Assembly (NCBI GenBank): GCA_042577045.1 | Contig: JBHPEK010000001.1 | Location: forward strand, 15,173-79,172 | Reading direction: 5' to 3' | DNA: 64,000 nt | Origin: Patescibacteria group bacterium | GTDB taxonomy: Bacteria > Patescibacteriota > Minisyncoccia > JAHISW01 > Tagabacteraceae | In this document: piece after piece, positions 773 through 63,044 of the stretch | Layout: each line of letters starts with the position of its first letter | How positions within the stretch are numbered: the first letter of the stretch is position 1 | The notes under the pieces: generated by a model | What the model was told of the DNA's origin: nothing | Seen by the model: only the letters and a program-made list of their open reading frames with translations | Databases searched by the model: none | Made by a program: the position numbers and the translations under genes

Positions 773-792
773 ACAGTCGCGAATGCGACTGT
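773..792. terminator. bidirectional stem-loop terminator
   Basis: acagtcgc/gcgactgt stem flanked by an A-run and a T-run. Confidence 0.6.
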
Positions 793-803
793 TTTAATTT
801 TAT

Positions 804-3708: not shown

Positions 3709-5998
3709 TCTCTGATTCCACTTCACTTAGTGGACGTCCGTATTTCACAGCGGAAGCCTCTTTAACTTCTGACGCCACTTCTGGGCTACCTTTTTCTGGG
3801 GGAATGGTTTGAATATTGAAGGGGCGAGAAGTTTCTCCGTTGACAAGAAGTTTGGCATAAGCGTGATAGTTTGAAATGTTCATTAAGTCTTCCTCTGAAA
3901 AAACTAACTCAAAGTTTTTACTTAGAAATTCAGCATCATCTTTGCCAATTCTAAAAACAACCATAGAACCCACATTTCCAAAAACCGCCTTCCTCGTCTC
4001 CTCTTCTATTTGAGAAATAAACTGGTGGGCAATGGTTAAGTTTAGGCGATATTTACGAGCTTCTGATAAAATTCTAGAAATAGAGCTAGTGGTAACATTT
4101 TGAAATTCATCTATATATAGATAGAAGTCTTTTCTTTCACTTTCTGCTAGATCAACCCGAGCCATAGCTGACATAAAAAGCTTACCAACGACAATCATAC
4201 CCAAAAGACTTGAATTGATTTCCCCAAGCCGACCTTTAGATAAATTGACCAAAAGGATTTTTTGATTATCAATTACTTCGCGAAAATTGAAAGAAGATTT
4301 TTCTTGAGAAATAATTGGCCTCATTATTTCGTTGGCCAAAAAAGTATCAAATTTACTTGTAATGTAAGGAGCCATATTGGCAAGAGCGGCTTCACCGCCA
4401 GCTTTTTCAGCTGACTCTTCCCAGAAATTATTCACAACAACGTTCTTACTTTTAGACAATTTAAGGCGACGAAACTCTTCGTCTACCAATACTCTAGATA
4501 TTTCCAAAAGGGTGTTTCCAGATTCAGGGTCTTCCATTACTAAAAGAGTGGCATTTCTGAAATATTGCTGGAACATTGGCCCTAAACCCTCTGGCGAATC
4601 TGCAAAAAGTTTCTGAAAAATTTCCAAAAGCTCGTTGACAATAAATGTTTTCTGCTCTGGATGCGCAGGGTCGTACTCCAGCATATTTAAACCAAACGGC
4701 CTCTTAACCTCACTTGGGTCAAAATAAATTACATCATCCCACCTCTCTTCTGGTATTTGACCTAAAATATCTTGAATGTCTGAACCGTGTGGATCTATAA
4801 AACAAATCCCACGACCATCTTTAATATCTTGAACAGCCATGTTTTTAAGGAGGGCCGACTTGCCAGTGCCTGTTTGGCCAATAGTATAGAGGTGTCGTCT
4901 ACGATCTTCGGGAGAAAGGTGAATTTCTGTTTCTACTCCTCGAAAATAATTTTTCCCAATTAGCGAACCTTCTTTTGACAGGTTGGGCGGAGCTTCGGTT
5001 TGCCTATCTTTCACATAGCCAGTTTTAGGAGCAAACAACCCCTGCGATGGAAAATGAAAAATACTAGTTAACTCCTCTGTGTTTAAAAATATAGCTTTGC
5101 TTTTATCAAAAAGACGATATGAAAAGTTGTAAAATAGGTTCTTCAAACTACGCCCCTTTAAGTCGTTAGTTACAAAAGAGTTCCCTTGAGTGGAGGAATA
5201 TTGAGAAAACATACTTTTAAGTTGAGTCAAAATTTCATTGGCTCGGTTTTTTGTTTGAGCAGAAACCACTAACCGAACATTGATAGACATTACTTGTTTA
5301 GATATTTTCTTTTCCAGGAGTCTTATTATTTCCGCCCTATTTTCTTTATCCAAAGGATTGGGGTCAATAAACTCTGGCTTTGGTTCAGAGTGAATTGTGC
5401 CGCCAGTAATAACTTTCAAAAATGACTTAGTAAGACTCTCTCCTCCCGCCAAGGATGTTTTAATGGGTTCGCCGGCGTTCAACAAGCTAATTGCTTTTTC
5501 GGCATCATGATTAAAAACGTTTTTACTTGGGTCTATTAGAATCTGCACAGCAGCTCCTTCTTCCTCTCTGTTTAGTTTGGAAAAGGCATTTGCGATAACC
5601 TCTAGGGGGTTGGCACTGAGGTCTTCATAAGTTTTGACTGGCAAAATAGCTTTAGTTCTTAGAGAAATAGTGGTGCCAAGATTTACACCTTTAGTTTTGA
5701 AAACATTGTAGTCTGTAGGTTCTTCGCGAATTTCAGCGTCAGGAAAAATGGAATAGACCTGTTTTTCAAAAAAGGAAACAAACTTTCTTGGCACAGCAGC
5801 GTAGAAATTGGTTTCGTTTTCTGTGGCTGGAGAAACAATTTCCAAAACAAAATAAGGCTGTAGCTCGGACATGCCGGAATAAAATTGTTCCATAACCACA
5901 ACCAGGTCCTTAAAAGATTTCTCATTGTCTTTTTTGGCAAAAGGGAAGCCAACCTCGAGAAGAACTAGGTCTAAAGATTTTTTAAGATTTGTTTTCAT
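3659..5998 (-). CDS. P-loop ATPase of TraG/TraD/VirD4 (coupling-protein-like, DUF87-type) architecture
   Basis: Walker A GQTGTGKS, Walker B FYLYIDEFQ, C-terminal TraD/TraG-like region. Confidence 0.6.
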   Translation of the reverse strand: MKTNLKKSLDLVLLEVGFPFAKKDNEKSFKDLVVVMEQFYSGMSELQPYFVLEIVSPATENETNFYAAVPRKFVSFFEKQVYSIFPDAEIREEPTDYNVFKTKGVNLGTTISLRTKAILPVKTYEDLSANPLEVIANAFSKLNREEEGAAVQILIDPSKNVFNHDAEKAISLLNAGEPIKTSLAGGESLTKSFLKVITGGTIHSEPKPEFIDPNPLDKENRAEIIRLLEKKISKQVMSINVRLVVSAQTKNRANEILTQLKSMFSQYSSTQGNSFVTNDLKGRSLKNLFYNFSYRLFDKSKAIFLNTEELTSIFHFPSQGLFAPKTGYVKDRQTEAPPNLSKEGSLIGKNYFRGVETEIHLSPEDRRRHLYTIGQTGTGKSALLKNMAVQDIKDGRGICFIDPHGSDIQDILGQIPEERWDDVIYFDPSEVKRPFGLNMLEYDPAHPEQKTFIVNELLEIFQKLFADSPEGLGPMFQQYFRNATLLVMEDPESGNTLLEISRVLVDEEFRRLKLSKSKNVVVNNFWEESAEKAGGEAALANMAPYITSKFDTFLANEIMRPIISQEKSSFNFREVIDNQKILLVNLSKGRLGEINSSLLGMIVVGKLFMSAMARVDLAESERKDFYLYIDEFQNVTTSSISRILSEARKYRLNLTIAHQFISQIEEETRKAVFGNVGSMVVFRIGKDDAEFLSKNFELVFSEEDLMNISNYHAYAKLLVNGETSRPFNIQTIPPEKGSPEVASEVKEASAVKYGRPLSEVESEIRKKYLRGRDGENLKV

Positions 5999-6423: not shown

Positions 6424-8256
6424 ATGACTCAAAAAATTATAAATTTTTCCGCATTTGTTATTTTAGCCACCATGTTTGTGTTGTTAATTTCTTCTGCATG
6501 GAACGACTCAGCCACTATGGACGAATTGGCCCATATCCCCGCTGGATACTCTTACTTAACAGAGCAAGATTTTAGAATAAACCCAGAACACCCGCCTCTT
6601 ATCAAAGACCTCTCTGCAATTCCCCTTTTATTTCTAGATTTAAATTTCCCAGTAAACGACCCTTCTTGGTCCACGGCTATTAATGGCCAGTGGGACTTGG
6701 GGAGGATATTCATATATGAGTCGGGTAACAATGCCGACGATATTATAAAATTCTCGCGTCTCCCTATTATGTTTCTAGCAATTTTATTTGGCTGGATGCT
6801 TTTTAGATGGGCAAAAAGTTTGTATGGAGATAAAGTTGCCATTCTCACTCTTTTCCTTTTTGCCTTTTCTCCTACATTTCTGGCTCACTCTAGATATGTC
6901 ACCACGGACTTAGCGGCAGCCTTTGGCTTCTTTCTTGGTTTGGCGGCCTTCATTAATTGGATACAGAAAAATACCACAAAAAGCCTAGTTATCTGTGGTG
7001 TTGCTTTTGGAGTAGCTCAACTTCTTAAATTCTCTTTAGTAATTCTAGGGCCTATTTATATTATCTTGGGAGCACTTTGGGTGTTTTTAGTAAATTACGA
7101 AAAGTTTAGTTGGAGAAAATTTATCAAAGAGCAATTTATAATGCTTGGTAAAATTATCTTAATTGCTTTAATCGGTTTTGTAATTATTATCCCTTTCTAT
7201 ATATTCCACGTTTGGAACTATCCAGTAGAGCGACAAGTAAATGATATTTCGTTCATTTTGCACACCTTTAAGGTGCGATTTCTAGCTGACGCAGTTATTT
7301 GGCTTGCTGGATCAAGCTTAGTTGCGGTGCGTGCTTTGGCTGAATATTTGTTTGGAATTTTAATGGTAATGCAAAGAGCGGCCGGTGGAAACAATGTATT
7401 CCTTCTGGGAGAAGTCGCCAACAAAGGGTGGCCAATCTATTTCCCTCTTTTGTATTTGCTGAAAGAACATCTTGCTCTGCATATTCTAACTTTAATAGGA
7501 ATAATTTTTGGAATAAACAATATCAGAAAAAGTAATGAAAAAACTTTCAAAAATTTCTGTGGATGGTTACGAGAAAATTTTGCACTTACTGCTAGTTTTA
7601 TTTTTCTGGGAATTTATTGGTTACAAGCCATTACCAGTCCACTAAACATTGGAGTGCGACATGTTCTGCCCACCTTCCCTTTTATTTACCTGATTGTTTC
7701 TCGACAGACTATTCGGTGGATTAAGGAGTACGGCGTGGAAACGCCAAAAACTATCTTTGGATGGCTAAAAGAATTCTACCGGCTTTATATTCGACCAATT
7801 AAGCGCGGTTTACTTCTTATTCTTCTTTTAATTTGGATGCTTGCTTCGACAATTTTAAACTTCCCACACTATCTGTCCTACTTTAACGAGTTGGTTGCAG
7901 GTACGCCAAACGGATACAAAATTGCCGTTGACTCAAACTACGACTGGGGACAAGACCTATTGAGACTTCGTGACTATATTGAAGAAAACAACATAGAAAA
8001 CATTGCCATAGATTATTTTGGAGGTGGACACCCAAAATACTACCTAGGCGACAAAGCCCACATCTGGCACTCCAACTCTGGACACCCAATGGATCAGGGT
8101 ATTGAATGGCTAGCAGTGTCCCTAACATTCTTTCAAGAATCACGAGCAGAACCCGTGAAGGGATTTGTACGATTGCCAGCAGACACATTCCCTTGGCTAG
8201 ATGGTGCAGACTTTGTTACCAGAGCAGGGACCTCTATATTTATATATAGATTCTAA
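6424..8256 (+). CDS. GT-C glycosyltransferase (family 39, ArnT/PMT-like)
   Basis: N-terminal MDELAHIPAGYSY motif region, many TM helices, C-terminal soluble domain. Confidence 0.6.
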   Translation: MTQKIINFSAFVILATMFVLLISSAWNDSATMDELAHIPAGYSYLTEQDFRINPEHPPLIKDLSAIPLLFLDLNFPVNDPSWSTAINGQWDLGRIFIYESGNNADDIIKFSRLPIMFLAILFGWMLFRWAKSLYGDKVAILTLFLFAFSPTFLAHSRYVTTDLAAAFGFFLGLAAFINWIQKNTTKSLVICGVAFGVAQLLKFSLVILGPIYIILGALWVFLVNYEKFSWRKFIKEQFIMLGKIILIALIGFVIIIPFYIFHVWNYPVERQVNDISFILHTFKVRFLADAVIWLAGSSLVAVRALAEYLFGILMVMQRAAGGNNVFLLGEVANKGWPIYFPLLYLLKEHLALHILTLIGIIFGINNIRKSNEKTFKNFCGWLRENFALTASFIFLGIYWLQAITSPLNIGVRHVLPTFPFIYLIVSRQTIRWIKEYGVETPKTIFGWLKEFYRLYIRPIKRGLLLILLLIWMLASTILNFPHYLSYFNELVAGTPNGYKIAVDSNYDWGQDLLRLRDYIEENNIENIAIDYFGGGHPKYYLGDKAHIWHSNSGHPMDQGIEWLAVSLTFFQESRAEPVKGFVRLPADTFPWLDGADFVTRAGTSIFIYRF

Positions 8257-8276: not shown

Positions 8277-8320
8277 TAAACTTAGCAAATACTTACGATC
8301 GTAAGTATTTGCTAAGTTTA
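8277..8320. repeat. perfect 44-nt even palindrome centred on ACGATCGT (family P)
   Basis: taaacttagcaaatacttacga|tcgtaagtatttgctaagttta. Confidence 0.9.
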
Positions 8321-13059: not shown

Positions 13060-13070
13060 CATATGTTTTT

Positions 13071-13095
13071 TCCATCGACATCCGATGTCGATGGA
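13071..13095. repeat. TCSGA-centred element, class A, perfect
   Basis: tccatcgacatc-c-gatgtcgatgga. Confidence 0.9.
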
Positions 13096-13135
13096 AATCT
13101 AAAAACTATCGGAAGAACAGTAAGCAATAAAAAAA

Positions 13136-13740: not shown

Positions 13741-13767
13741 ATCCATCGACATCCGATGTCGATGGAT
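13741..13767. repeat. TCSGA-centred element, class A, perfect 27 nt
   Basis: atccatcgacatc-c-gatgtcgatggat, 12 nt downstream of the RAYT-1 stop. Confidence 0.9.
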
Positions 13768-13779
13768 CGATAAAAGCTA

Positions 13780-14493
13780 CTAATCTAAAACGATATCTCT
13801 TATCTTTTCTAAATCAATTTCAGACCACTCTCTCAAAAACTTCTCGTAGTCTTTCTTTCCCCTAAACTGATCTGTGATTATTTCTGTTCCGGATAAAATT
13901 AAATCTTCAAAATCGTCTTGTAGATAACTTTTCAAACTAGACCATGGGTATTTAATAAGTTCTTTCTTTTTTAAATTCCAACTTTTTAAATTCCCCCCTC
14001 TCCAGTCTTTGCTGTCAATAAAATCTAATGGGTTAAGATGGATATACAAAGAAAGATGAAGAAGATAATTATTTGAATCAATATGTTTTGCTTTAAAATT
14101 ACTTTCAAAAAGAGAACCTTTCCGTTCTTGTTTGGTGTTTATATATTTTGCAATTGAAATATTACTCTTACGAAGAAAAGTACTTATTCCACCCTCCGTT
14201 AATTCTTTTACCAAAAGGTGATAGTGATTCGGCATAATTGAATAAGCAACGACATCAACAAGTTTATCACCTCTCCATGCTATATCTACTGCTTTTCTTA
14301 AGCTTACATTTTTGTAATTTCTTAAATAATCAAACGCCTTACTTGATTCTGTTGAATTTGCCAACAAAAAACATTGAGTAAGTTTATTTGCATTCTCATA
14401 GTTCTCAAATTCCGGAATATTTAATATTGTTCTGCTGTAAACGTGATAATATTCTCCTGAAACAAATTGGTCTTTTCTTATCATAATATTCAT
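13780..14493 (-). CDS. HUH/Y1 tyrosine transposase, IS200/REP-associated (RAYT-like), copy 1
   Basis: MPNHYHLLV (HUH) and LYIHLNP (catalytic Tyr) about 60 aa apart. The longer ORF to 14607 only translates the upstream hairpin. Confidence 0.8.
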   Translation of the reverse strand: MNIMIRKDQFVSGEYYHVYSRTILNIPEFENYENANKLTQCFLLANSTESSKAFDYLRNYKNVSLRKAVDIAWRGDKLVDVVAYSIMPNHYHLLVKELTEGGISTFLRKSNISIAKYINTKQERKGSLFESNFKAKHIDSNNYLLHLSLYIHLNPLDFIDSKDWRGGNLKSWNLKKKELIKYPWSSLKSYLQDDFEDLILSGTEIITDQFRGKKDYEKFLREWSEIDLEKIRDIVLD

Positions 14494-14503: not shown

Positions 14504-14526
14504 CCATCGACATCGGAAGTCGATGG
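14504..14526. repeat. TCSGA-centred element, class A with a hybrid inner arm
   Basis: ccatcgacaTCGGAagtcgatgg; exact reverse complement of 15046-15068. Confidence 0.9.
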
Positions 14527-15045: not shown

Positions 15046-15068
15046 CCATCGACTTCCGATGTCGATGG
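15046..15068. repeat. TCSGA-centred element, class A hybrid (inverted copy of 14504-14526)
   Basis: ccatcgactTCCGAtgtcgatgg. Confidence 0.9.
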
Positions 15069-18344: not shown

Positions 18345-18380
18345 TTTAGCATTTACTTACGATCGTAAGTAAATGCTAAA
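18345..18380. repeat. perfect 36-nt palindrome centred on ACGATCGT (family P)
   Basis: tttagcatttacttacga|tcgtaagtaaatgctaaa. Confidence 0.9.
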
Positions 18381-18438: not shown

Positions 18439-18472
18439 TATACACTTACCAACGATCGTAGATAAGTGTATA
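18439..18472. repeat. family P palindrome (centre AACGATCGTA)
   Basis: tatacactta...taagtgtata arms. Confidence 0.75.
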
Positions 18473-26276: not shown

Positions 26277-26461
26277 ATGTATTTAGATTAAATTATTTCC
26301 TTACCAAGATAATATCACAAACCATAGTCGACCTTAAACAAATTGCCAAAAAAATCTTAAAAAAATAATAAAGAAATTTCTGGCTATTTCATATAGTTCG
26401 TTATTATACATACTATTACTTATACTGTATCACTTTGTAATTGGTGATACAATGTAATACA

Positions 26462-28498
26462 ATGTCAACCATGAAATATCACATCATCACATACGGCTGT
26501 GGAGCCAATCATGCCGATTCAGAAAGGATCGAAGCGAAGCTTCACGCACTTGGACACACAAAAGCCGCCAACAAGAAGGTGGCTAATTTGATAGTGATTA
26601 ATTCTTGCTCGGTGCGCAAGTCAGCTATGGATCGTCTTTATGCACAAATAAACAAACTAAAAACCAAGAAAAAGAAAGTAATTTTGGCAGGATGCATCTT
26701 AGAAAAAGACCTAAAAAATTTGAAAGACAAGGTAAGTGAAGTTTGGCACCCAGATGAGTACTTCGACTTAATGCCAATTTATGCAGATGAAGTTGGTGTG
26801 TCTGTCCCCATTATGACGGGGTGCAACAACTTTTGCACATATTGTGCTGTTCCTTACACCCGTGGACGAGAAAAATCTCGCCCAGCAAAAGATATTGTCG
26901 ATGAAATAAAGAAACTTGTGGCAAGCCCCGCCGGGCGGGATAAAAAAGAAATTTGGCTATTGGGTCAAAACGTAAACAGTTACCGATCTGGTAAAACAAA
27001 CTTTCCAAAACTTTTACAGAAAATAGATAAAATACCCGGCAAGTTTTGGGTTCGTTTTATTTCCCCACACCCAAAAGACTTCTCGATTGAATTAATAAAA
27101 ACAATTAAAAAATGTGAAAAAATTACTGAATACATAAACGTGCCTGTTCAGTCTGGAGACAATGAAATACTAAAAAGAATGAATAGAAACTACACGCGCG
27201 AACACTATATAAAACTTGTAAACAGAATTAGAAAAGAAATACCAGACGCATCTATATCCACAGATACCATTGTTGGCTTCCCTGGGGAAACAAAAAAACA
27301 ATTCTTGAATACTAAAGATTTATACAAAAAATTAAAATTTGATATGGCATTTCTAGCTGAATACTCTCCTCGTCCGGGGACTTTTTCAGCAATGATGATG
27401 AAAGACAACGTAAGCCATACCGAAAAAGAAAAACGAAAAAAAGAACTAAATGACATTTTAACCAAAACTGCACTAGAGAATAATAAAAAATATATTGGAA
27501 AAACAGTAGAAGTTTTAAATGGACGAACTCGCACCAATAAGCTGGTTACCCTACACGATACCGAGTATCGTGTAGGGCCAAGTGAATTCTTGAATGTAAA
27601 AATTACAGGAGCTGAATCTTGGAGACTAAAAGGGGAAATTGTTAAAAAAATAGTAGTTGTGCTTGGGCCTACTGCTTCTGGAAAAAGTGGTTTAGCTGTT
27701 GAGATAGCTCAAAAATTCCCTTCTGAGATTATCTCTGCAGATTCTAGACAAATTTACAAAGGAATGAATATCGGTAGTGGAAAAATAACAAAAAAGGAAA
27801 TGAAAGGAATAAAACATCATCTTCTTAACATAGTTAGCCCAAGAAAAATATATTCGGCAGGAGAATTCAAAAAAGAAGCTCAAAAATGTATCGAAGGAAT
27901 ATTGAAACAAGACAAAACGCCTATCATTTGTGGTGGAACAGGTTTTTATATCAACTCGCTTTTGGGTGGAAACATTGCCGAAGTAGAACCAGATTGGAAC
28001 TTGAGAAAAAAACTTGAGGAAAAAACTACAAAACAACTTTTTGGCCAACTGAAAAAACTAAAACCCCAAAGAGCAAAAAATATTGATTCCCAAAACAAAC
28101 GCCGACTAATACGGGCTATTGAAATAGCCAAATCTGCATCGAAGTCGGACTTCGACGCAATATCGAAGTCCGACTTCGATGTGTTGTATTTAGGAATTAA
28201 AAAAGACGGAGAAAAGCTAAAAAAAATAATTGATAAGAGGGTGGACGAAATGATTGAAGAAGGATTAGAAAAGGAAGTAAAAAAACTTGTTAAAAAATAT
28301 GGGTGGACGAAGACTTTAAAAAATACAATTGGATACCAAGAATGGAAAGAAGACAATTCAGAAGAAAAGATAAAGGCCCATTCACACCAATACGCAAAAA
28401 GACAAATAACTTGGTTTAAGAAATATGCACCGAAAACACACTGGCTTGGCAACAAAAAAGAAGCATTAAAATTAGTAAGAAACTTTTTAAAGAATTAA
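26462..28498 (+). CDS. miaB-miaA: fused MiaB (radical SAM methylthiotransferase) - MiaA (tRNA dimethylallyltransferase)
   Basis: UPF0004 N-domain, CNNFCTYC radical SAM cluster and TRAM domain, followed by a P-loop GPTASGKS and ADSRQIYKGMNIGS. Start is at 26462 or 26471. Confidence 0.85.
   Translation: MSTMKYHIITYGCGANHADSERIEAKLHALGHTKAANKKVANLIVINSCSVRKSAMDRLYAQINKLKTKKKKVILAGCILEKDLKNLKDKVSEVWHPDEYFDLMPIYADEVGVSVPIMTGCNNFCTYCAVPYTRGREKSRPAKDIVDEIKKLVASPAGRDKKEIWLLGQNVNSYRSGKTNFPKLLQKIDKIPGKFWVRFISPHPKDFSIELIKTIKKCEKITEYINVPVQSGDNEILKRMNRNYTREHYIKLVNRIRKEIPDASISTDTIVGFPGETKKQFLNTKDLYKKLKFDMAFLAEYSPRPGTFSAMMMKDNVSHTEKEKRKKELNDILTKTALENNKKYIGKTVEVLNGRTRTNKLVTLHDTEYRVGPSEFLNVKITGAESWRLKGEIVKKIVVVLGPTASGKSGLAVEIAQKFPSEIISADSRQIYKGMNIGSGKITKKEMKGIKHHLLNIVSPRKIYSAGEFKKEAQKCIEGILKQDKTPIICGGTGFYINSLLGGNIAEVEPDWNLRKKLEEKTTKQLFGQLKKLKPQRAKNIDSQNKRRLIRAIEIAKSASKSDFDAISKSDFDVLYLGIKKDGEKLKKIIDKRVDEMIEEGLEKEVKKLVKKYGWTKTLKNTIGYQEWKEDNSEEKIKAHSHQYAKRQITWFKKYAPKTHWLGNKKEALKLVRNFLKN
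28136..28158. repeat. TCSGA-centred element, class D, inside the miaA part (in frame)
   Basis: gcatcgaagtc-g-gacttcgacgc. Confidence 0.8.
28160..28182. repeat. TCSGA-centred element, class D, inverted partner, in frame
   Basis: atatcgaagtc-c-gacttcgatgt; with 28136-28158 it encodes SKSDFDAISKSDFD. Confidence 0.8.
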
Positions 28499-35348: not shown

Positions 35349-35372
35349 GTTTGTTTTATTGGCCAATTCTTC

Positions 35373-35421
35373 ATCTGTGTACTGAGAGAGATGTTGTCTC
35401 TCTCAGGAGCTTCCAACAGAT
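35373..35421. repeat. composite palindrome: class B outer arms with nested CTGAGAGAGA inner arms
   Basis: atctgtgtactgagagagatgttgtctctctcaggagcttccaacagat; 6 nt downstream of the RAYT-2 stop. Confidence 0.8.
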
Positions 35422-35427
35422 ACCAAA

Positions 35428-36081
35428 TTATTCTATTATGAACTCTTTTATGTCTTCGAACCTGCTCTTACTTTTGGTTTTGCAGCTTTTTAGAAATTCT
35501 TCATATTCGTCGTAATTTTTTAAAGGAGTCCATTTGTATTCTTCAAGAAATTTTTTTGCCTTACGCCAATCTTTTAAGCCCTCCTCTTTCCACCTAGGCT
35601 CAAAAAGATCTAGCGGGTTTAGATAAATATATTGTTTTAAATAATTTAAATATTCATCTTTATCTATTAGAACTGCCTTGAACTTTCCCTGAAACAAAAC
35701 TCCACTTCTCTCATATTTTTGATTAAAATAATTAGTGTAGCCAGTTCCCAGTTTTTGCATAAAACTGGAAATTCCGCCATCTTCCAATTGTTCAAGAATT
35801 AAATGAAAATGATTAGGCATTAAACAAGAGCCATAAAATTTAACTACGGACTCTCTGTCCTCTTTTTTTACTATGTGGGAAGTCGGACTTCCCACAGATA
35901 CCGCTCCTTCGCTAACACTTATACGACGAAACAGATTAATAGAAGAGTTCTTATCATTAAAATCTCTTAAGCTAAAAAGGAAGCGATGGTAGTCTTTGTC
36001 GTCCATAAAAACCTTACGTTTGTCTGTCCCACGGTTAAAAACGTGATAAAAATGGTTATTTGCAAATTGAGGTTTTTTCAT
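35428..36081 (-). CDS. HUH/Y1 tyrosine transposase, IS200/RAYT-like, copy 2
   Basis: MPNHFHLIL (HUH), QYIYLNP (Tyr). Start is at 36081 (MKKPQF...) or 36108. Confidence 0.8.
   Translation of the reverse strand: MKKPQFANNHFYHVFNRGTDKRKVFMDDKDYHRFLFSLRDFNDKNSSINLFRRISVSEGAVSVGSPTSHIVKKEDRESVVKFYGSCLMPNHFHLILEQLEDGGISSFMQKLGTGYTNYFNQKYERSGVLFQGKFKAVLIDKDEYLNYLKQYIYLNPLDLFEPRWKEEGLKDWRKAKKFLEEYKWTPLKNYDEYEEFLKSCKTKSKSRFEDIKEFIIE
35874..35896. repeat. class B element inside the RAYT-2 CDS (in frame, encodes VGSPTSH)
   Basis: tgtgggaagtc-g-gacttcccaca followed by gatacc. Confidence 0.85.
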
Positions 36082-36107
36082 TACTTTTATTATATATACA
36101 TATTTCA

Positions 36108-36134
36108 TCTGTGGGAAGTCCGACTTCCCACAGA
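36108..36134. repeat. TCSGA-centred element, class B, perfect 27 nt
   Basis: tctgtgggaagtc-c-gacttcccacaga. Confidence 0.9.
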
Positions 36135-36580: not shown

Positions 36581-37801
36581 TTATTTTATGGAAGAAATAT
36601 TTTTTAATTTGTTAATAATATCTGGAAGAACTTTCAAAACATAATCTATGTCTTCTTTTGTGTTTTCCTTTCCCAAGCTGAACCGAACCGAACCATGCAC
36701 GTGCTCATGGCATCGGCCAATCGCTTTTATAACGTGTGAGGGTTCTAAACTATCCGAACTACACGCCGAACCGGTTGAGGAGGCTATTCCTTTGGCATCA
36801 AGGTATAAAATAATAGATTCGCCCTCTACTCCATGAAAAGAAATATTTATATTATTTGGAAGTCGGGCGTCTAAAGATCCGTTAATTTTGGAGTCGGGAA
36901 AAGTTTTTGAAAGATTTTCTATAAAATAATTACGCAATTCAATAAGACGAGCAGATTCTTTTTCTCTTTCCTTTTGGGCAACCTCTAGCGCCTCAGCAAA
37001 GCCAACAATGGCAGGAATATTTTCTGTTCCTGGACGAAGACCAGATTCTTGCCCACCACCGTAAAGTATTGGCTCAATTTTTAATCCTCTCTTTTTGTAA
37101 AGGCACCCAACTCCTTTGGGCCCATAAATTTTAGAACCGTTTAAAGACATTAGATCTATTCCCAACTTGGCAACATTTAAATCTAGAAAGGACGGGGTTT
37201 GAATAGCGTCGGTATGAAAATATGGTGTTTCAACTCCGTGTTCTTTTCGATGAGCACGAATTATTTTAGCAATCCTAGAGATTGGTTGAATGGTTCCTAT
37301 TTCATTATTGGCATACATAATAGAAACCAAGATCGTCTCTTTTCGAAGTTCTTTTTTTAATTCTTCTAAATCCACCAGTCCATCTTTATCTACATCTAAA
37401 TAACTAACTTCGAATCCCTCTTTCTCAAGTTTCTCGCAAGCATGAAGGACCGCGTGATGTTCTATACTGGAAGTAATGATATGTGGGAAGTTGGACTTCG
37501 CACGCTTGTTGTGGGAAGTCCTGAGAGAGATCTGATCTCTCTCAGTGCCCACAGAACCAAAAATGGCCAGATTGTCACTCTCAGTACCACTAGAAGTAAA
37601 AATAATTTCGTCTGGACGTGCACTCAAAATTTCGGACACTTTATGTCGAGCGTCAGAGATGGCTTTTTTGGCAACTCGACCCTCCTCATAAATTGAAGAG
37701 GCATTTCCAAAATCCACAGACCAAAAAGGCTCCATTGCCTTTTTAACAGCTGGATCTAGTTGGGTAGTTGCTGCATGATCTAAATATATTCTTTTCATCA
37801 T
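36581..37801 (-). CDS. nifS: cysteine desulfurase (NifS/IscS) carrying an in-frame repeat insertion
   Basis: GTESDN, PLP Lys region SLNGSKIYGPKG, catalytic SSTGSACSS. Confidence 0.9.
   Translation of the reverse strand: MMKRIYLDHAATTQLDPAVKKAMEPFWSVDFGNASSIYEEGRVAKKAISDARHKVSEILSARPDEIIFTSSGTESDNLAIFGSVGTERDQISLRTSHNKRAKSNFPHIITSSIEHHAVLHACEKLEKEGFEVSYLDVDKDGLVDLEELKKELRKETILVSIMYANNEIGTIQPISRIAKIIRAHRKEHGVETPYFHTDAIQTPSFLDLNVAKLGIDLMSLNGSKIYGPKGVGCLYKKRGLKIEPILYGGGQESGLRPGTENIPAIVGFAEALEVAQKEREKESARLIELRNYFIENLSKTFPDSKINGSLDARLPNNINISFHGVEGESIILYLDAKGIASSTGSACSSDSLEPSHVIKAIGRCHEHVHGSVRFSLGKENTKEDIDYVLKVLPDIINKLKNISSIK
37482..37504. repeat. degenerate class B element inside nifS
   Basis: tgtgggaagtTggacttcGcacG. 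Confidence 0.7.
37510..37553. repeat. composite class B/inner-arm element inside nifS
   Basis: tgtgggaagtcctgagagagatctgatctctctcagtgcccaca. Confidence 0.85.
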
Positions 37802-38877
37802 AAATTTCTATAAAGTTTAAGCCACTTAATAGTTTTTTTCAAGCCCAAAACATTTCTAAAATATCGAAAAAATATAAGATGGCGTAAAAATTTTGCAAAC
37901 AATCCCTTTAACTTTAAAAAACCAAAATCAATAAAAATATCATTTCCGCCAAAATCAACTATATAAAAACTTTTATTTTCTTTATAGTTTGAAATTTTTT
38001 GATTGTTAATCTTCTTTTTTAGTGCTCTGGCAATATATTTTCCTTGGTGAATTGCCGATTGCGCCGTTGGCGCTTTTATAAGAAAAACGTTTTTGTATTT
38101 TTTAAGACGAAGGGTGCTGCTTGTTTCTTTAAACTCCTCAATTAGGTGGTTCTGTTTCTTTCCAGTTGCCCAAACTAAAACATCCTCAAGGTCTTCTTTT
38201 TCAATCTGGCTTTTTGTAAAAATTTCAACATTCATTTTTTCAAAAATATTTAATGCAGTTTCGCGAATCCAAGACGAAGAAGATGGCAAAATTTTGCTAC
38301 CAATTTCAAAAAGTTTAAAATGTATTAAATCACGCGGGTGTGAATGCGCAACAGAAAGATTGCGTACATAATGATGCAAGCTAGCTATTAACTCACACCC
38401 AACCAAACCAGCTCCAGCTACCACAATGTCTATCTTTTCCTTCTTAGCTTTTTGTTTCAAAATCTCTTCAATTTTTGTCTTAATCCTCAAAACATCTTCC
38501 AAAGATGAAAATGATGAGTTTGGAAATTGTGGCTCGGCGCCAGTCGCCAAAACAAGATAATCGTAGTCTACAACTTTTTTGTTCTTCAAATTAATTTTAT
38601 TTTGATTGGGTAAAAATTTAACAACTTTGTTTTTTAGAAAAGTTATTTTTTTATTTCCAAATATGTCTTCGAATTTTATGGCAACTACTTGGAAAACTTT
38701 AGAAACATCCAAAATAGAAGACGTGGCCCTAAAAAATGCAGGCGTAAAAAGATGATAGTTGTTTTTATCAACCAAAACTACTTCAAATTCTTTGGGGGCG
38801 ATTTTTAAAATGTGTTTGGCAACTGCCAGACCAGCAAAACCACCACCCACTATAACAAGTTTCTTTTTTTTCTTCAT
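37798..38877 (-). CDS. FAD/NAD(P)-dependent oxidoreductase (NDH-2 / pyridine nucleotide-disulfide type)
   Basis: Two dinucleotide folds: VIVGGGFAGLA and VVAGAGLVGCE. Confidence 0.6.
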   Translation of the reverse strand: MKKKKKLVIVGGGFAGLAVAKHILKIAPKEFEVVLVDKNNYHLFTPAFFRATSSILDVSKVFQVVAIKFEDIFGNKKITFLKNKVVKFLPNQNKINLKNKKVVDYDYLVLATGAEPQFPNSSFSSLEDVLRIKTKIEEILKQKAKKEKIDIVVAGAGLVGCELIASLHHYVRNLSVAHSHPRDLIHFKLFEIGSKILPSSSSWIRETALNIFEKMNVEIFTKSQIEKEDLEDVLVWATGKKQNHLIEEFKETSSTLRLKKYKNVFLIKAPTAQSAIHQGKYIARALKKKINNQKISNYKENKSFYIVDFGGNDIFIDFGFLKLKGLFAKFLRHLIFFRYFRNVLGLKKTIKWLKLYRNL

Positions 38878-40672: not shown

Positions 40673-40697
40673 CCCCAGAATGCAATACATTCTGGGG
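40673..40697 (-). terminator. terminator of the PEP-CTERM gene; near-identical copy at 41553-41577
   Basis: ccccagaatg...attctgggg. Confidence 0.65.
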
Positions 40698-41512: not shown

Positions 41513-41539
41513 TCTGTGGGAAGTCCGACTTCCCACAGA
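41513..41539. repeat. TCSGA-centred element, class B, perfect
   Basis: tctgtgggaagtc-c-gacttcccacaga followed by tacaaaaaa. Confidence 0.9.
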
Positions 41540-41552: not shown

Positions 41553-41577
41553 CCCCAGAATGCAGAACATTCTGGGG
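41553..41577 (-). terminator. terminator of 41645-42007
   Basis: ccccagaatg...attctgggg. Confidence 0.65.
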
Positions 41578-46804: not shown

Positions 46805-46883
46805 ATCTAATCCTCCTTTGCTCTTTGCTATCTAAAACATTTATACCATCCCCCTTCACCCTCCGTCAACCCAAATATTTTTC

Positions 46884-46931
46884 ATCTGTGGGAAGTCCTG
46901 AGAGAGATAGTATCTCTCTCAGGACACAGAT
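46884..46931. repeat. composite class B/inner-arm palindrome
   Basis: atctgtgggaagtcctgagagagatagtatctctctcaggacacagat followed by accaaaaaa. Confidence 0.85.
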
Positions 46932-46944
46932 ACCAAAAAACACC

Positions 46945-47008: not shown

Positions 47009-47031
47009 ACGTCGACGTCCGACGTCGACGT
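47009..47031. repeat. TCSGA-centred element, class C, perfect
   Basis: acgtcgacgtc-c-gacgtcgacgt, preceded by tttcaact. Confidence 0.9.
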
Positions 47032-56171: not shown

Positions 56172-56196
56172 TGCGTCGACGTCCGACGTCGACGCA
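56172..56196. repeat. TCSGA-centred element, class C, perfect
   Basis: tgcgtcgacgtc-c-gacgtcgacgca. Confidence 0.9.
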
Positions 56197-56224: not shown

Positions 56225-56815
56225 TCAATAGCTCCCGGAGGTCCGACCTCCGGGAGGACAAAACCCCAAGTCTTTTGCATAACGATCTACAGAATATTTA
56301 CCATCATACATATTTGCAACATAATCGTATTCTTGCTGATTATTTATATCGATAGTTTTTTTAAGAATACTTTGGATACCAATGTCACCAATTAATTCTT
56401 GTTTATCAATATCAAAAGCAATAGAGTGTATTGTAAGCGGAACCCCCGACAGAAAATTCAAAATATCTGGTTCTAATCCTCGTTCTTGTATGGAATGGAT
56501 ATTGTCTAACGGTATTAAATCGATATCAATACTGTCGTTGTTTAATTTAAGATTTCCATGCTTATTTTCGATAGCTTTCCAGTCTTCTGGCAACACCAAA
56601 TCTTTTGTTGCTTTTTCTATGACAAAATCAAAATCCTTTGTAGATATTTTTAACCCATAAAGACCGCTTGCTATTGTTTTATATACAGCACCACCAATGA
56701 GCCATATTTTGCCTTTACAATTTTTTCTTGCAACTTCTAAGGCCAAATGATAGGCGGTATCATCTCGCAAAGCTGTTTGAAGAATATCTCTCAATTTATT
56801 TTTTTCCATGTTCAC
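56225..56815 (-). CDS. putative Pol-beta-superfamily nucleotidyltransferase
   Basis: WLIGGAVYK...DFDFVIE resembles the GG..(R/K)...DxD NTase motif. The last 10 codons are encoded by a palindromic element. Confidence 0.5.
   Translation of the reverse strand: MNMEKNKLRDILQTALRDDTAYHLALEVARKNCKGKIWLIGGAVYKTIASGLYGLKISTKDFDFVIEKATKDLVLPEDWKAIENKHGNLKLNNDSIDIDLIPLDNIHSIQERGLEPDILNFLSGVPLTIHSIAFDIDKQELIGDIGIQSILKKTIDINNQQEYDYVANMYDGKYSVDRYAKDLGFCPPGGRTSGSY
56232..56256. repeat. TCSGA-centred element, class F, perfect; forms the 3' end of CDS 56225-56815
   Basis: ctcccggaggtc-c-gacctccgggag (encodes PPGGRTSGS). Confidence 0.9.
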
Positions 56816-57378: not shown

Positions 57379-57405
57379 CTGCGTCGACGTCCGACGTCGA
57401 CGCAG
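57379..57405. repeat. TCSGA-centred element, class C, perfect 27 nt
   Basis: ctgcgtcgacgtc-c-gacgtcgacgcag. Confidence 0.9.
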
Positions 57406-60377: not shown

Positions 60378-60488
60378 ATGTATTTATCTAAACGTGGCAA
60401 AAAATTAAACAGGGCTGTTTGGATTTTCATCAGTATTTTGGCAATCATCGGAATGGTGGGTTACCTCATTGTACCACTTTTCTACTAA
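60378..60488 (+). CDS. possible 36-aa membrane peptide
   Basis: TATAAT at 60363-60368; MYLSKRGKKLNRAVWIFISILAIIGMVGYLIVPLFY. Confidence 0.35.
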   Translation: MYLSKRGKKLNRAVWIFISILAIIGMVGYLIVPLFY

Positions 60489-62311
60489 TCATTTCCTCCA
60501 CCCTGAATCATCTTCAAGAACACGTCGTGGGGAACATCTACCCGGCCGTGTTTGCTTAATTTTTTCTTCCCCTTTTTCTGCTTCTCTCGCACTTTCATTT
60601 TTCTAGTTATGTCTCCACCATATAGACCAGCGGTGACATCTTTTTTAAGAGCAGATATTTTTTGAGCAGCAATAATGCGCCCATTTGCTTTCACTTGGAT
60701 TTTAATCACAAACAGCGCTCTTGGCAAAAACCTCTTTAATTTCTCGGCTAAATTTTTTGCATCCCTTTGCATATCTTTTTTGGCAATCATTTTTGAAAAT
60801 GCTGGAATGACCTCTTCATTTAAAAGAACTTCTAAGCGAGTAAGTTCCCCCCTTCTATCTTCCATAATTTGATAACTAAAAGACGCATATCCAGACGTAG
60901 CACTTTTTAATTCTTCAAAAAAATTGTTCATCATTTCGCGTAGGGGCATTTGGGCTTTTAAAACAAATCTCTTCTGCTCACCAAATCCTTCTGTATCTCC
61001 CACCATGGCATCTCGTCTTTTTAAGACTTGCATAACTTCTCCCAACTTATCAAAAGGAGTTATAATTTTTACTTCAACCCATGGTTCGAGAATTTTATCT
61101 ATTTGAAAATGTTCAGGAAAAAGCGCTGCTGAATAAATCTCTTTTTTATTGCCATTTTTATCTTCTATTTTGTAAACCACGCTGGGAGTAGCAACCACAA
61201 CAGCAAGCTTAAACTCACGCTTTAGGCGTTCCACAATAATTTCAAGATGGAGCATTCCTAAAAAACCACAACGAAATCCACGCCCCAAAACACCACTTTC
61301 CTCTTCTTCAAAATCTAAAGAGCTGTCTGAAAGCTTCAATCTTTCTAACGACTGTTTTAAGTCCGTAAAATCGTCTTGAGACTCTGGGTATATACTAGCC
61401 CAAACAACTGGCGCGGGTTGTTTATATCCCTTTAGCGCCCCCAAGGTACTACCTTTGGAAAGAAGTGTATCTCCAACAGAGGCAACACCTGCCTCTTTAA
61501 CATTCGTTACAACATATCCAATTTCTCCTGTTTTTAGATCTGGAGTTTCTAGGGGGGTGGGGCTAAGAATGCCAATTTCCCCAACTGTAAAATTTAGACC
61601 AGCTTGATGTAAAAATACCTTATCACCTTTTTTGATTTGGCCATCTGTGCATCGTACATATAAAATAATACCTTTGTGAGGTGAATACTCGAAATCAAAA
61701 ACCAAACCCCTGAATCCACACGACACCGAGTTTCGTGTATCTACACGAAACTCGGTGTCGTGTGGGTGTGGAGGTGGGATACGAGAAATAATTTCTTTGA
61801 GCAGGGCCTCTACGCCTTCCCCTGTTTTAGCTGATACTTCTAAAATATCTTTTTCCTCGCAAGACAAAATTTCCAAAATTTCTTGTTTCGTCTCTGGGGT
61901 CTGTGCATTCGGACTATCTATCTTGTTAATAACGGGAACTATGGTTAACCCCAACTCTTTTGCCATTTCTAAGTTACTAATTGTTTGCGCTTGAACTCCT
62001 TGAGTGGCATCTACTAAAAGTACTGCCCCCTCAACAGCCTTAAGAGAACGCGACACCTCGTAAGAAAAATCTATATGTCCTGGAGTATCAATCAAATTGA
62101 GTTGATACCCCTCAAAACTCATTCGGACTGGTTGCATTTTTATGGTAATACCTCTTTCTCTCTCTAACTCCATTTGATCTAAAACTTGTTCTTTCATTTT
62201 TCTCTTCTCTATGGTCGCAGTCAATTCCAAGAACCGATCAGCCAAAGTTGACTTACCGTGGTCAATATGCGCAATAATACTAAAATTTCTAATATTGTTT
62301 TTTTCTTGCAT
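60485..62311 (-). CDS. lepA: translation elongation factor 4 (LepA) carrying an in-frame palindrome
   Basis: G-domain AHIDHGKST, DTPGH, NKID; LepA-specific C-terminus. Confidence 0.95.
   Translation of the reverse strand: MQEKNNIRNFSIIAHIDHGKSTLADRFLELTATIEKRKMKEQVLDQMELERERGITIKMQPVRMSFEGYQLNLIDTPGHIDFSYEVSRSLKAVEGAVLLVDATQGVQAQTISNLEMAKELGLTIVPVINKIDSPNAQTPETKQEILEILSCEEKDILEVSAKTGEGVEALLKEIISRIPPPHPHDTEFRVDTRNSVSCGFRGLVFDFEYSPHKGIILYVRCTDGQIKKGDKVFLHQAGLNFTVGEIGILSPTPLETPDLKTGEIGYVVTNVKEAGVASVGDTLLSKGSTLGALKGYKQPAPVVWASIYPESQDDFTDLKQSLERLKLSDSSLDFEEEESGVLGRGFRCGFLGMLHLEIIVERLKREFKLAVVVATPSVVYKIEDKNGNKKEIYSAALFPEHFQIDKILEPWVEVKIITPFDKLGEVMQVLKRRDAMVGDTEGFGEQKRFVLKAQMPLREMMNNFFEELKSATSGYASFSYQIMEDRRGELTRLEVLLNEEVIPAFSKMIAKKDMQRDAKNLAEKLKRFLPRALFVIKIQVKANGRIIAAQKISALKKDVTAGLYGGDITRKMKVREKQKKGKKKLSKHGRVDVPHDVFLKMIQGGGND
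61716..61765. repeat. perfect 22-bp-arm inverted repeat inside lepA
   Basis: ccacacgacaccgagtttcgtg-tatcta-cacgaaactcggtgtcgtgtgg. Confidence 0.9.
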
Positions 62312-63017: not shown

Positions 63018-63044
63018 TCTGTGGGAAGTCGGACTTCCCACAGA
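63018..63044. repeat. TCSGA-centred element, class B, perfect
   Basis: tctgtgggaagtc-g-gacttcccacaga followed by tac. Confidence 0.9.

Follow-up and report, generated by a model that had tools for sequence, protein, structure and literature searches.

A perfect in-frame palindrome in a Patescibacteria lepA gene, probably an intragenic REP-type element

The lepA palindrome and its host gene

The window analysed here is a 64-kb stretch of the Patescibacteria contig JBHPEK010000001.1 (GCA_042577045.1), and all coordinates are window positions. It carries a lepA gene with a palindrome inside the reading frame:

60485-62311, minus strand: lepA (elongation factor 4), 608 aa, with Pfam domains GTP_EFTU, EFG_III, EFG_C and LepA_C
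61716-61765: lepA palindrome, 50 nt, CCACACGACACCGAGTTTCGTGTA-TC-TACACGAAACTCGGTGTCGTGTGG, two imperfect hairpin units in inverted orientation, encoding PHDTEFRVDTRNSVSCG in lepA
61716-61739: unit 1 (one arm), an imperfect hairpin when taken alone (ACACGA-c-AC CGA GT-t-TCGTGT), as read from the sequence and from the comparison with 27549-27577
61742-61765: unit 2 (second arm), 24 nt or 8 codons long and identical to unit 1 in reverse complement

The repeat search returned 61716-61765 as a perfect palindrome, with 24-nt arms (61716-61739 and 61742-61765) that were 100% complementary around a 2-nt centre. An earlier note on this DNA had described 22-nt arms around tatcta; these are the same 50 nt, but the arms reach 2 nt further inwards and are 24 nt each. 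Its peptide, P-H-D-T-E-F-R-V-D-T-R-N-S-V-S-C-G in frame in lepA, agreed with our translation, and its statement that the centre is other than TCSGA was also confirmed, with AC-CGA-GT as the centre of the arm. The internal c/t mismatch of unit 1 was compensated in the long hairpin only. The 22-mer arm had no chance match in 100 shuffles, and the longest perfect stem was 24 bp in the lepA palindrome versus 14 bp at most after dinucleotide shuffling of the window (30 shuffles). As DNA, the hairpin had a predicted energy of -29.8 kcal/mol (z = -11.7), with a single 23-bp stem and a 4-nt loop as the MFE fold, and as RNA in a 90-nt context the prediction was -51 kcal/mol (z = -8.4). The terminator scan made no call for the hairpin, so we rejected its reading as an intrinsic terminator. 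The view of the earlier note that the hairpin should act on replication, transcription or mRNA structure is an expectation.

The insert lies in the linker that joins the G domain and domain II of LepA (about residues 183-199), flanked by the conserved blocks IPPP and LVFD, where the earlier note had placed it. The segment from IPPP to the domain II strand was 11 residues longer than in T. thermophilus EF4 (5imq), and the linker stretch had 37 residues versus the usual 25-28 in 120 Patescibacteria homologs. About 10 residues are added by the palindrome. The comparison with related genomes that had been proposed as a check found the closest LepA orthologs without the insert and its palindrome-encoded residues. 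In the AlphaFold model, residues 186-196 had pLDDT below 50, within a coil (178-200) between well-modelled domains, and the insert is accordingly modelled as a low-confidence coil in a variable, flexible linker. A search with the palindrome-encoded peptides, as a 66-aa chimera of both open frames, returned 0 proteins at E ≤ 10 among 5.8 billion.

Palindrome families and RAYT-like genes of the window

Perfect palindromes with a stem of 11 bp or more numbered 31 in the window versus 0.33 in shuffles, and they formed families of 2-4 copies with differing flanks. Hairpin repeats occurred about once per 3 kb, and the short palindromic repeats were G+C-rich in an A+T-rich genome. The classes, the two RAYT-like transposase genes and a relative of the lepA arm were located as follows:

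35428-36108, minus strand: RAYT-like Y1 (HUH) transposase gene 1, motifs NHFHLI and YIYLNP, likely start at 36081
36108-36134: class B REP, TCTGTGGGAAGTC-C-GACTTCCCACAGA, directly upstream of RAYT gene 1
35874-35896: class B REP inside RAYT gene 1, in frame, encoding VSVGSPTSHI
35370-35425: class-B-like arms with a class D hairpin (35382-35406) nested at the centre, right after the RAYT gene 1 stop
41513-41539 and 63018-63044: further class B copies
13783-14493, minus strand: RAYT-like Y1 transposase gene 2, motifs NHYHLL/YIHLNP
13741-13767: class C REP, ATCCATCGACATC-C-GATGTCGATGGAT, just past the RAYT gene 2 stop codon
about 14504-14526 (upstream of the RAYT gene 2 ATG), 13069-13097 and about 15046-15068: further class C copies
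1492-1524, 47009-47031, 56172-56196 and 57379-57405: class A REP-like palindromes
46895-46925: class D copy
37521-37545: class D hairpin enclosed by class-B-like arms, within the reading frame of an IscS-like cysteine desulfurase
28137-28181: class E inverted doublet, ATCGAAGTC-G-GACTTCGA(7 nt)TCGAAGTC-C-GACTTCGAT, in frame in the miaA part of the miaB-miaA ORF
56232-56256: class F
40673-40697 and 41553-41577: class G
27549-27577: single unit related to the lepA arm, CCCTACACGATAC-CGA-GTATCGTGTAGGG, perfect stem of 13 bp, within the reading frame of the miaB-miaA ORF (miaB part)

Both transposase genes scored above the gathering cut-off of 23 for PF01797 (Y1_Tnp), with 35.9 bits for RAYT-1 and 28.4 bits for RAYT-2, and the E-values of the two genes were 9.5e-9 and 1.9e-6. 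The sole NCBIfam match of RAYT-1, the one gene that this score covers, was NF047646 (REP-associated tyrosine transposase) at 35.7 bits, below the cut-off of 80. RAYT-2 is a paralog; in tblastn its identity to RAYT-1 and to RAYT-1 homologs was 30-40%. A PDB sequence search with RAYT-1 gave nothing significant. The flanking REPs recur elsewhere in the window (class B for RAYT-1, class C for RAYT-2), so that each RAYT-like gene is flanked by its own REP class, which is the known REP/RAYT arrangement. The palindrome within RAYT gene 1 was kept in homologs, with covarying residues. RAYT loci in other Patescibacteria had genome-specific flanking palindromes with the common centre (A/G)TC-S-GA(T/C), found on both sides of the RAYT homolog in two loci (L134, L135) and upstream only in a third (L133).

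The lepA palindrome is not the only one of the window within a reading frame. The palindrome of the IscS-like protein adds about 10 residues (GTERDQISLR) compared with solved homologs and is a clear insertion, and the class E doublet at 28137-28181 is a dimer built like the lepA element. The class D stems (GAGAGAGAT/ATCTCTCTC) have what we take to be a resemblance to the SMRTbell adapter stem, but we rejected a PacBio adapter remnant because the stem order was opposite, the loops were 3-5 nt, and the copies lay in frame in continuous genes. No Rfam family covered the palindromes.

Of 22 positions, the miaB unit had 19 in common with one lepA arm, and it is read in the same frame (HDTEYRV versus HDTEFRV), so the arm, which had been called unrelated to classes A-F, is not wholly without relatives in the window. 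The miaB unit was almost length-neutral against MiaB structures and overlapped conserved RVG residues, and for these reasons it is no clean insertion. Since each arm forms an imperfect hairpin on its own and miaB contains a single unit akin to it, the lepA element is built like an inverted REP dimer (REPIN). Within the 64-kb window this unit type was present at two loci only, lepA and miaB. A scan with ACACGANACCGAGTNTCGTGTA over a genome contig collection to which the source genome does not belong gave 1 chance match, in Saccharopolyspora, and a degenerate arm pattern gave 13 scattered matches in a viral collection, which was not above our estimate for chance alone.

Related palindromes in other lepA genes

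Two distant Patescibacteria (L001 and L002) had lepA palindromes in the identical linker and frame (TEF...NSVS), and the lepA palindromes of the window, L001 and L002 had the core A-C-S-G-A-G-T-T-T-C in common. The L001 and L002 palindromes belong to a GAAAC-type family, AGAAACCGAGTTTCT-loop-AGAAACTCGGTTTCT, with at least 120 metagenome loci that had unrelated flanks and neighbour genes. The doublet of this family is (T)AGAAACCGAGTTTCT-(3-6 nt)-AGAAACTCGGTTTCT(A), and membership was defined by the arms AGAAAC-SGA-GTTTCT and AGAAAC-TCS-GTTTCT with 0-14 nt between them. The lepA element of the window is like the family in its core ACCGAGTTTC...GAAACTCGGT, in its inverted-dimer architecture and in having members in the lepA linker and frame. 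However, it lies outside the family by the pattern, with only the 10-nt core in common; its outer stem is GAcAC/GTgTC versus GAAAC/GTTTC, and beyond this it adds an apical stem, GTGTA-GA-TACAC, and differs in its basal stem, CCACACG/CGTGTGG. A search for GAAACNNNGTTTC in the 64-kb window found no copy.

At one locus (L093) a Y1_Tnp gene was flanked on both sides by GAAAC-type copies, and a RAYT homolog was found at 3 of the 120 GAAAC-type loci, among the matches listed. The 118 ORFs next to GAAAC-type copies matched 127 Pfam families, none of which was dominant, and we did not find transposase enrichment among these neighbours. Members also lay in frame in Patescibacteria-like genes, namely a Wzy_C/TPR protein and a ComF-like phosphoribosyltransferase. 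A HEARO RNA (Rfam) was seen near one metagenome copy, at L119 only. A loose doublet pattern found only unrelated tandem direct repeats in phage contigs of the viral collection, and the string GAAACCGAGTTTC was not found in the literature searched.

Other insertions in the LepA linker were not palindromic (L004, z = -1.1) or weakly so (L005, z = -2.0), and a peptide-level feasibility test for a palindromic linker picked out P0001, P0027, P0032 and P0059 only. P0044 and P0070, relatives of L001 and L002 in the same clade that lack the insert, have no TEF in the linker, so TEF came with the element in that clade.

Origin and meaning of the lepA palindrome

The most likely reading of the lepA palindrome is that it is one of the many small mobile palindromes of this genome. 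We consider it probable, at roughly 0.6, that it is an intragenic REP-type element made of two inverted hairpin units of about 22-24 nt, 2 nt apart, in the architecture of a REPIN (REP dimer). The earlier note had left the choice between a further element type and an independent foldback, and the further type is the better supported of the two, by the palindrome families, the two palindrome-flanked Y1 genes, the miaB relative and the dispersed family with members in lepA linkers. We infer that the lepA copy was mobilised. A RAYT-type enzyme would excise and insert the unit or the dimer as a single-stranded DNA hairpin during replication, and one copy would have landed in the LepA linker. We propose that this copy persists because the frame was kept, the frame has no stop codon, and the encoded surface loop would leave the protein undisturbed. 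Several findings weigh against the REPIN reading: the unit type at two loci only, window RAYT genes neither of which is flanked by it, a centre of AC-CGA-GT versus the TCSGA of the RAYT-flanking classes, a place outside the GAAAC-type pattern, and a peptide with no other in-frame copy in the protein database of 5.8 billion entries.

A local inverted duplication would need no transposase: template switching or foldback in replication or repair would have copied a stretch of the lepA linker as its adjacent reverse complement, and the duplicated stretch may itself be one inserted hairpin unit. The right arm has the length of exactly 8 codons (24 nt), and without it the PPP-FRG spacing is 10 residues, which is normal in related LepAs; x-E-F is native to many LepA linkers (KTEF in P0078, for example), no second copy of the window-type doublet turned up in the protein database, and the miaB unit replaces sequence of native length and adds none, as templated conversion would. 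But such a duplication leaves the hairpin of the arm itself and its 19/22 likeness to the miaB unit unexplained. In the L001/L002 clade the motif arrived with the element, as the TEF-free linkers of P0044 and P0070 indicate, the elements there match a family at at least 120 unrelated loci, and the genome studied here plainly holds copy-generating palindrome families and RAYTs, so we regard a transposase-free duplication as unlikely, if still credible.

The hairpin might instead be a structural element specific to lepA, vertically inherited with its symmetry under selection, and acting in mRNA or DNA through interdomain translational pausing, mRNA stability or a protein-binding site. Related hairpins in the identical linker and frame of three lineages would fit this, as would the compensatory differences that keep the pairing (CGA/TCG versus GGA/TCC, GAcAC/GTgTC versus GAAAC/GTTTC), the very stable predicted RNA hairpin, and the precedent of the REP in the RAYT gene, a conserved palindrome with covarying residues. 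Such selection is nevertheless very unlikely: the closest relatives in both clades have no hairpin, about 100 of 120 homologs have a short linker, L004 has a decayed remnant, the same element type is dispersed over unrelated intergenic and genic sites, and the terminator scan passed over the hairpin. Assemblers can be confused by palindromes, and an artefact of the metagenome assembly, by a chimeric or foldback join, would be a further explanation. This is hardly credible here, because LepA homology runs on in frame at either side and the site is mid-contig (88 kb); moreover, independent assemblies from other projects have related palindromes in the same linker, and dozens of similar window palindromes also sit in continuous genes.

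The REPIN-type reading has close parallels in known systems. Like REPs and REPINs (PMC3337134; PMC3116915, Bertels & Rainey 2011), the window elements are short imperfect palindromic units whose inverted pairs form one long hairpin, with several repeat families per genome and with Y1 HUH transposase genes flanked by their own repeat class (REPtrons). The 24-nt lepA arms are in the usual unit size, an imperfect palindrome of about 20-40 nt. A RAYT gene flanked by the same repeat type was found for the GAAAC-type family (L093) and not for the lepA unit. REPs are typically extragenic, whereas the lepA copy lies in frame, inside a conserved translation GTPase gene and in a host of the Patescibacteria (CPR); intragenic REPs are documented exceptions, and REP dimers with units 1-2 bp apart and REPtrons specific to one repeat are also on record (PMC3733652, Di Nocera et al. 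2013). The same study describes 1-2 bp dimers, and ORF copies that encode loop or linker residues, in Opitutus terrae, Rickettsia conorii and others (PMC3733652); its supplements contained neither the peptides nor the motif. Unlike GTAG- or CGTC-tagged REPs, the RAYT-flanking classes are centred on (A/G)TC-S-GA(T/C) and have no unpaired GTAG or CGTC tag. One lepA unit has GTAG at its inner end (CGTGTAGA, coding strand), and so does the miaB unit at its end (CGTGTAGGG); both times it is within the stem, and the opposite strand reads GTAT.

Ogata and colleagues reportedly described the Rickettsia palindromic elements (RPE) in 2000, and the classical RPE-1 is said to be about 100-150 bp and to add 30-50 residues. 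The lepA element is like RPE as a palindromic repeat in frame in a conserved gene of a small A+T-rich genome, translated as an extra surface segment, and is set apart by that description with its 50 nt and about 10 residues, and is probably unrelated to RPE in sequence. RPE-4 and RPE-6 have been equated with CGTC REPs (PMC3733652), which have no associated transposase, whereas the genome of the window has REP-flanked RAYTs. In IS200/IS605 elements or their MITEs (PATEs), the unit goes in 3' of a short target sequence and has distinct subterminal hairpins at its left and right ends, unlike the single symmetric hairpin in lepA, which has no recognisable left or right end. Coding palindromes of Nematomorpha mitochondrial genes and template-switch palindromes are also perfect inverted repeats in coding sequence with both arms translated, but those of Nematomorpha reach 284 bp in organelle genomes and have no dispersed families with an associated transposase (PMC6649704).

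Thus, REPs inside genes are of a known kind from other bacteria, and what appears new here is the phylum Patescibacteria; an earlier REP/RAYT report for Patescibacteria (CPR) was not found in the literature searched. A streamlined and very small CPR/Patescibacteria genome still holds dense mobile hairpins and at least two repeat-specific tyrosine transposase genes, and the hairpins are tolerated in frame in conserved genes (lepA, miaB, miaA and an iscS-like gene) and also in a transposase gene. Such inserts lengthen and distort phylogenetic marker proteins, and in coding DNA and mRNA they form hairpins of very high stability; they can also be mistaken for assembly errors. REPIN-type hairpins in Patescibacteria might also be more than tolerated junk, with the LepA linker as a preferred, recurrent landing site and the symmetry within genes long kept by a process specific to hairpins, a proposal that we hold to be quite unlikely. 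If it were true, the candidate process would be RAYT action or arm-to-arm conversion, the clearest case would be the conserved, covarying REP in the RAYT frame, which could be an autoregulatory or recognition site, and "coding REPINs" would be persistent replicators within essential genes of minimal genomes. Since hairpins recur in the LepA linker of separate lineages, this site could gauge REP mobility and persistence in unculturable organisms.

Structure of the lepA palindrome and its place in LepA

60485-62311, minus strand: lepA, 608 aa, all LepA domains present
61716-61765: perfect palindrome inside lepA

The repeat search showed that the palindrome consists of two 24-nt arms (61716-61739 and 61742-61765), which are 100% complementary and 2 nt apart, and these are the same 50 nt that the earlier note had described as 22-nt arms around tatcta. 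The longest perfect stem was 24 bp, compared with at most 14 bp in 30 dinucleotide-shuffled versions of the window, and the 22-mer had 0 chance matches in 100 shuffles. As a single strand the element forms one hairpin with a DNA energy of -29.8 kcal/mol (z = -11.7), and as RNA in 90-nt context it reached -51 kcal/mol (z = -8.4); its G+C content was 54% against about 36% for the window. Each arm alone is an imperfect hairpin, ACACGA-c-AC CGA GT-t-TCGTGT, whose c/t mismatch becomes a perfect pair only when arm pairs with arm, so the element is an inverted dimer of one unit and not a direct repeat. The same logic is found in REPINs, which are two REPs in inverted orientation (PMC3337134). The centre differs from TCSGA (S is C or G), as had been noted before. 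The arm had been called unrelated to classes A-F; it is not wholly unrelated to the rest of the window, since the copy search found a lone unit at 27549-27577, CCCTACACGATAC-CGA-GTATCGTGTAGGG, that agrees with an arm at 19/22 positions and keeps its reading frame (HDTEYRV). No further related unit was found within the 64-kb window.

The palindrome is translated in frame as PHDTEFRVDTRNSVSCG, in agreement with its earlier placement, and the window LepA is identical to NCBI MFC1756610.1, [quoted passage not shown], from an 88-kb contig. Compared with T. thermophilus EF4 (5imq), it has 11 extra residues between IPPP, where the G domain ends, and the strand that opens domain II, and this linker stretch has 37 residues instead of the usual 25-28 (120 Patescibacteria homologs). 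The comparison with relatives that had been proposed showed that the nearest homologs in the neighbour-joining tree (P0007, P0016, P0005 and others, about 70% identical) lack the insert and all have the short form. In an AlphaFold2 model (60-sequence alignment, mean pLDDT 83.7), residues 186-196 had pLDDT below 50 within a coil (178-200) that is flanked by a confidently modelled helix (167-177) and strand (201-210). Other insertions of 5-21 residues were found at the same place in about 20 of the 120 homologs, so the linker clearly tolerates additions. In the protein database search, no other protein carried the peptides encoded by the lepA element.

Palindrome classes and REP-flanked transposases

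Perfect palindromes in the window numbered 45 at a minimum stem of 9 bp, 31 at 11 bp and 18 at 13 bp, while the shuffles gave 4.6, 0.33 and 0.07. The G+C-rich members group into families of 2-4 copies, which have identical arms and unrelated flanks.

G+C-rich palindrome classes and positions of their copies
Class A, GCGTCGACGTC-S-GACGTCGACGC: 1492, 47009, 56172, 57379
Class B, TCTGTGGGAAGTC-S-GACTTCCCACAGA: 35874, 36108, 41513, 63018
Class C, CCATCGACATC-S-GATGTCGATGG: 13069, 13741, 14508, 15050
Class D, CTGAGAGAGAT-N3-5-ATCTCTCTCAG: 35382, 37521, 46895
Class E, ATCGAAGTC-S-GACTTCGAT: inverted doublet 28137-28181

Every class-D copy is nested at the exact midpoint of class-B-like arms (35370-35425, 37505-37560, 46880-46940), which suggests that class D is an insertion into the loop of a pre-existing palindrome. 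The class-D stem resembles the PacBio SMRTbell adapter stem, with different order and context. Separate from these classes is a family of A+T-rich, perfect or near-perfect palindromes centred on CGATCG (8277-8320, 18345-18380, 18439-18472), all intergenic, of which TAAACTTAGCAAATACTTACGA|TCGTAAGTATTTGCTAAGTTTA (44 nt) is an example. Copies of the G+C-rich classes are mostly intergenic, and several are in frame within recognisable genes, among them one of two Y1 transposase genes.

26441-28498, plus strand: ORF with in-frame palindromes in its miaB and miaA parts
36581-37807: IscS-like cysteine desulfurase with in-frame palindrome
35428-36108, minus strand: transposase gene RAYT-1 with in-frame palindrome (Pfam Y1_Tnp, E = 9.5e-9)
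13783-14493, minus strand: its paralog RAYT-2 (Y1_Tnp, E = 1.9e-6)

Relative to solved homologs, the copy in the IscS-like gene adds about 10 residues as a clean insertion, and the miaB and miaA copies leave the net length unchanged, here against distant solved homologs. In the ORF at 26441-28498, MiaB (UPF0004 and Radical_SAM, residues ~11-401) is fused directly to MiaA (IPPT, ~402-680), an apparent bifunctional tRNA-A37 modification protein with two in-frame palindromes.

In NCBIfam, RAYT-1 matched only “REP-associated tyrosine transposase”, with 35.7 bits where the cut-off is 80, and its HUH and Tyr motifs are NHFHLI and YIYLNP. A class-B palindrome lies immediately upstream, a second copy is in frame inside the gene (35874-35896), and class-B-like arms with nested class D follow right past the stop codon. 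RAYT-2 is flanked by class C, 15 nt before the ATG (~14504-14526) and just past the stop (13741-13767), with more copies on each side (13069-13097, ~15046-15068). RAYT-1 with class B and RAYT-2 with class C thus make two REPtron-like units in the 64-kb window, and the repeat class differs between them. A RAYT gene that has its own REPs on its flanks corresponds to a REPtron, and “repeat-specific REPtrons” have been described in genomes with several REP families (PMC3733652).

The RAYT-like family had 2,881 homologs at E ≤ 1e-5, and the named ones among the matches listed were all Patescibacteria or unclassified bacterial records, annotated “transposase”. At three homolog loci, the flanking palindromes have the centre (A/G)TC-S-GA(T/C) as in the window, with genome-specific arms.

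Palindromes flanking RAYT homologs
L133, TATCTGTGGGATATC-C-GATATCCCACAGATA: upstream
L134, TATCTGTTGGACATC-G-GATGTCCAACAGATA and a close variant: upstream and downstream
L135, TGAGCGACATC-C-GATGTCGCTCA: both sides, identical

All three genes also contain internal perfect or near-perfect copies of their own flanking REP. Homologs 55-78% identical to RAYT-1 keep the peptide (V/E)-G-x-(P/R)-x-S-x at the internal palindrome, and its residues covary as reverse-complementary codons (S..T, N..I, D..I, Y..I, H..M). The residue pairs were compatible with a perfect palindrome in 42/59 homologs, whereas 2,000 shuffles averaged 20 and never exceeded 31. Given this covariation, the class-B palindrome inside RAYT-1 is not a random insert. 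In L133, from a sister genome, there are two LAGLIDADG endonuclease ORFs (3641-4162, 5061-5504) upstream of the RAYT homolog, at a distance of a few kb; they may be within rRNA introns.

The LepA linker in other lineages and the GAAAC-type doublet

Two LepA homologs (L001, L002), about 62% identical and in another clade of the tree, also carry an insert in this linker, and its peptide is again TEF...NSVS. The earlier note had considered that such a peptide might be shared without nucleotide symmetry, but the DNA is palindromic in both, in the same frame: GAAACCGAGTTTC-TAAAACCCA-GAAACTCGGTTTC in L001 and AACTTGGAAACGGAGTTTCCAAGT-GG-AAACTCCGTTTCCAAGTT (21-bp arms) in L002. The three lepA elements have the common core ACSGAGTTTC...GAAACTCSGT, and their differences come in pairs that preserve arm complementarity (CGA/TCG vs GGA/TCC; GAcAC/GTgTC vs GAAAC/GTTTC). 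Within the L001/L002 clade, P0044 and P0070 are without the insert, P0103 (locus L004) has a decayed remnant, and P0059 (L005) has a different G+C-rich, weakly hairpin-like insert, so that the distribution requires at least two gains, or one old gain and many losses. The P0059 insert, ASLREALRAGG, is encoded by an imperfect hairpin at L005 3080-3118, CCCGCCTCGCTACGC-GAA-GCGTTGCGGGCGGG (z = -2.0), unrelated in sequence to the other lepA elements; it is a second hint of different hairpin families landing in this linker.

A metagenome scan for GAAACSGAGTTTC-N(0-14)-GAAACTCSGTTTC, with 24 bases fixed and 2 more restricted (calculated chance far below one match per 10^13 bases), found at least 120 loci (L013-L132) with the wider consensus (T)AGAAACCGAGTTTCT-[3-6 nt]-AGAAACTCGGTTTCT(A). 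The contigs range from 37 to 68% G+C, and some carry 2-6 copies; L087 has 6 in tandem with a 12-16-nt spacer. None of the matches listed among these loci is in lepA. The flanks are mostly unrelated, and the 118 adjoining ORFs matched 127 different Pfam families, none dominant. Copies are mostly intergenic, with some in frame on low-G+C contigs: in a Wzy_C/TPR membrane protein as ETEFPLVRNSVS (L072, L075; the same peptide in a long ORF of L111), and in another frame in a ComF-like phosphoribosyltransferase (L018). The 15-nt arm has no stop codon in any frame. L093 has a Y1_Tnp gene (264-830, minus strand) with a doublet on both sides (225-257, 848-880): 7 nt separate the end of one doublet from the downstream end of the ORF, and 18 nt separate the start of the second from the upstream end. 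In at least one organism, therefore, the GAAAC-type family, which occupies lepA in L001/L002, supplies the REPs of a REPtron. The literature search found no published description of the doublet sequence.

L075 (also L072), which carries the in-frame Wzy_C/TPR doublet, also has a RAYT homolog flanked by ATATAACGACGTC-C-GACGTCGTTATAT palindromes (6727-6775, 6803-6835, 7512-7548), including a nested one with 24-bp arms. In L119, about 100 nt separate a HEARO RNA (IscB-associated RNA; 397-652, minus strand, 110.8 bits) from a doublet (753-783), and six loci have the common flank TTTGCACGATTTC... on that side; there may be a link between the GAAAC-type hairpin and IS200/IS605-type elements.

Origin of the lepA element

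We favour, with a probability of about 0.6, an intragenic, REPIN-like REP dimer with its own unit type. The analysis established how the element is built, that it is inserted when compared with orthologs and that it lies in a disordered linker; it also established the repeat families, the RAYTs with REPs on their flanks, and the association with a RAYT of the related family, with which the element shares a 10-nt core. Weak points of this reading are that the window has a single other related unit, that neither RAYT-1 nor RAYT-2, the two RAYTs of the window, carries the lepA unit type in its flanks, that the centre is not TCSGA, and that the database search gave no other protein with the encoded peptides. 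The earlier note had left the choice between a further element type and a foldback; the former, as an own-type REP dimer, is now the best reading, and foldback or local duplication stays a rival, although a rather unlikely one. A local inverted duplication would fit the right arm of exactly 8 codons, the normal linker length without that arm, and the x-E-F native to many LepA linkers, but it does not account for why the arm is a hairpin and resembles the miaB unit, nor for the L001/L002 elements, and the insert-free relatives of L001/L002 have no TEF in the linker. Both could also be combined, with a single unit inserted first and later doubled. A selected, lepA-specific structure is improbable: covarying REPs within RAYT genes (42/59 vs 20) mean that palindrome conservation is possible in coding sequence here, but the element is absent in the closest relatives and decayed in L004. 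An assembly artefact is very unlikely.

REP dimers only 1-2 bp apart are known from Opitutus terrae, Rickettsia conorii and other species, and REP dimers within ORFs encode 20-30 residues, for which the authors suggest a location in “flexible linkers or loops” (PMC3733652). Earlier work thus already covers REPs within genes, closely spaced REP dimers and REPtrons (PMC3733652, PMC3116915). What appears new within the literature searched is REP/RAYT in the phylum Patescibacteria, TCSGA-centred REP classes with repeat-specific RAYT paralogs, a REP conserved within the RAYT reading frame, the repeated occurrence of hairpins in the LepA linker, and the very broad GAAAC-type family. For the REP dimer reading, a RAYT would move the lepA unit as a single-stranded hairpin, and the lepA copy would owe its persistence to being in frame, free of stops and harmless for LepA. 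The host genome carries an active-looking REP/RAYT system.
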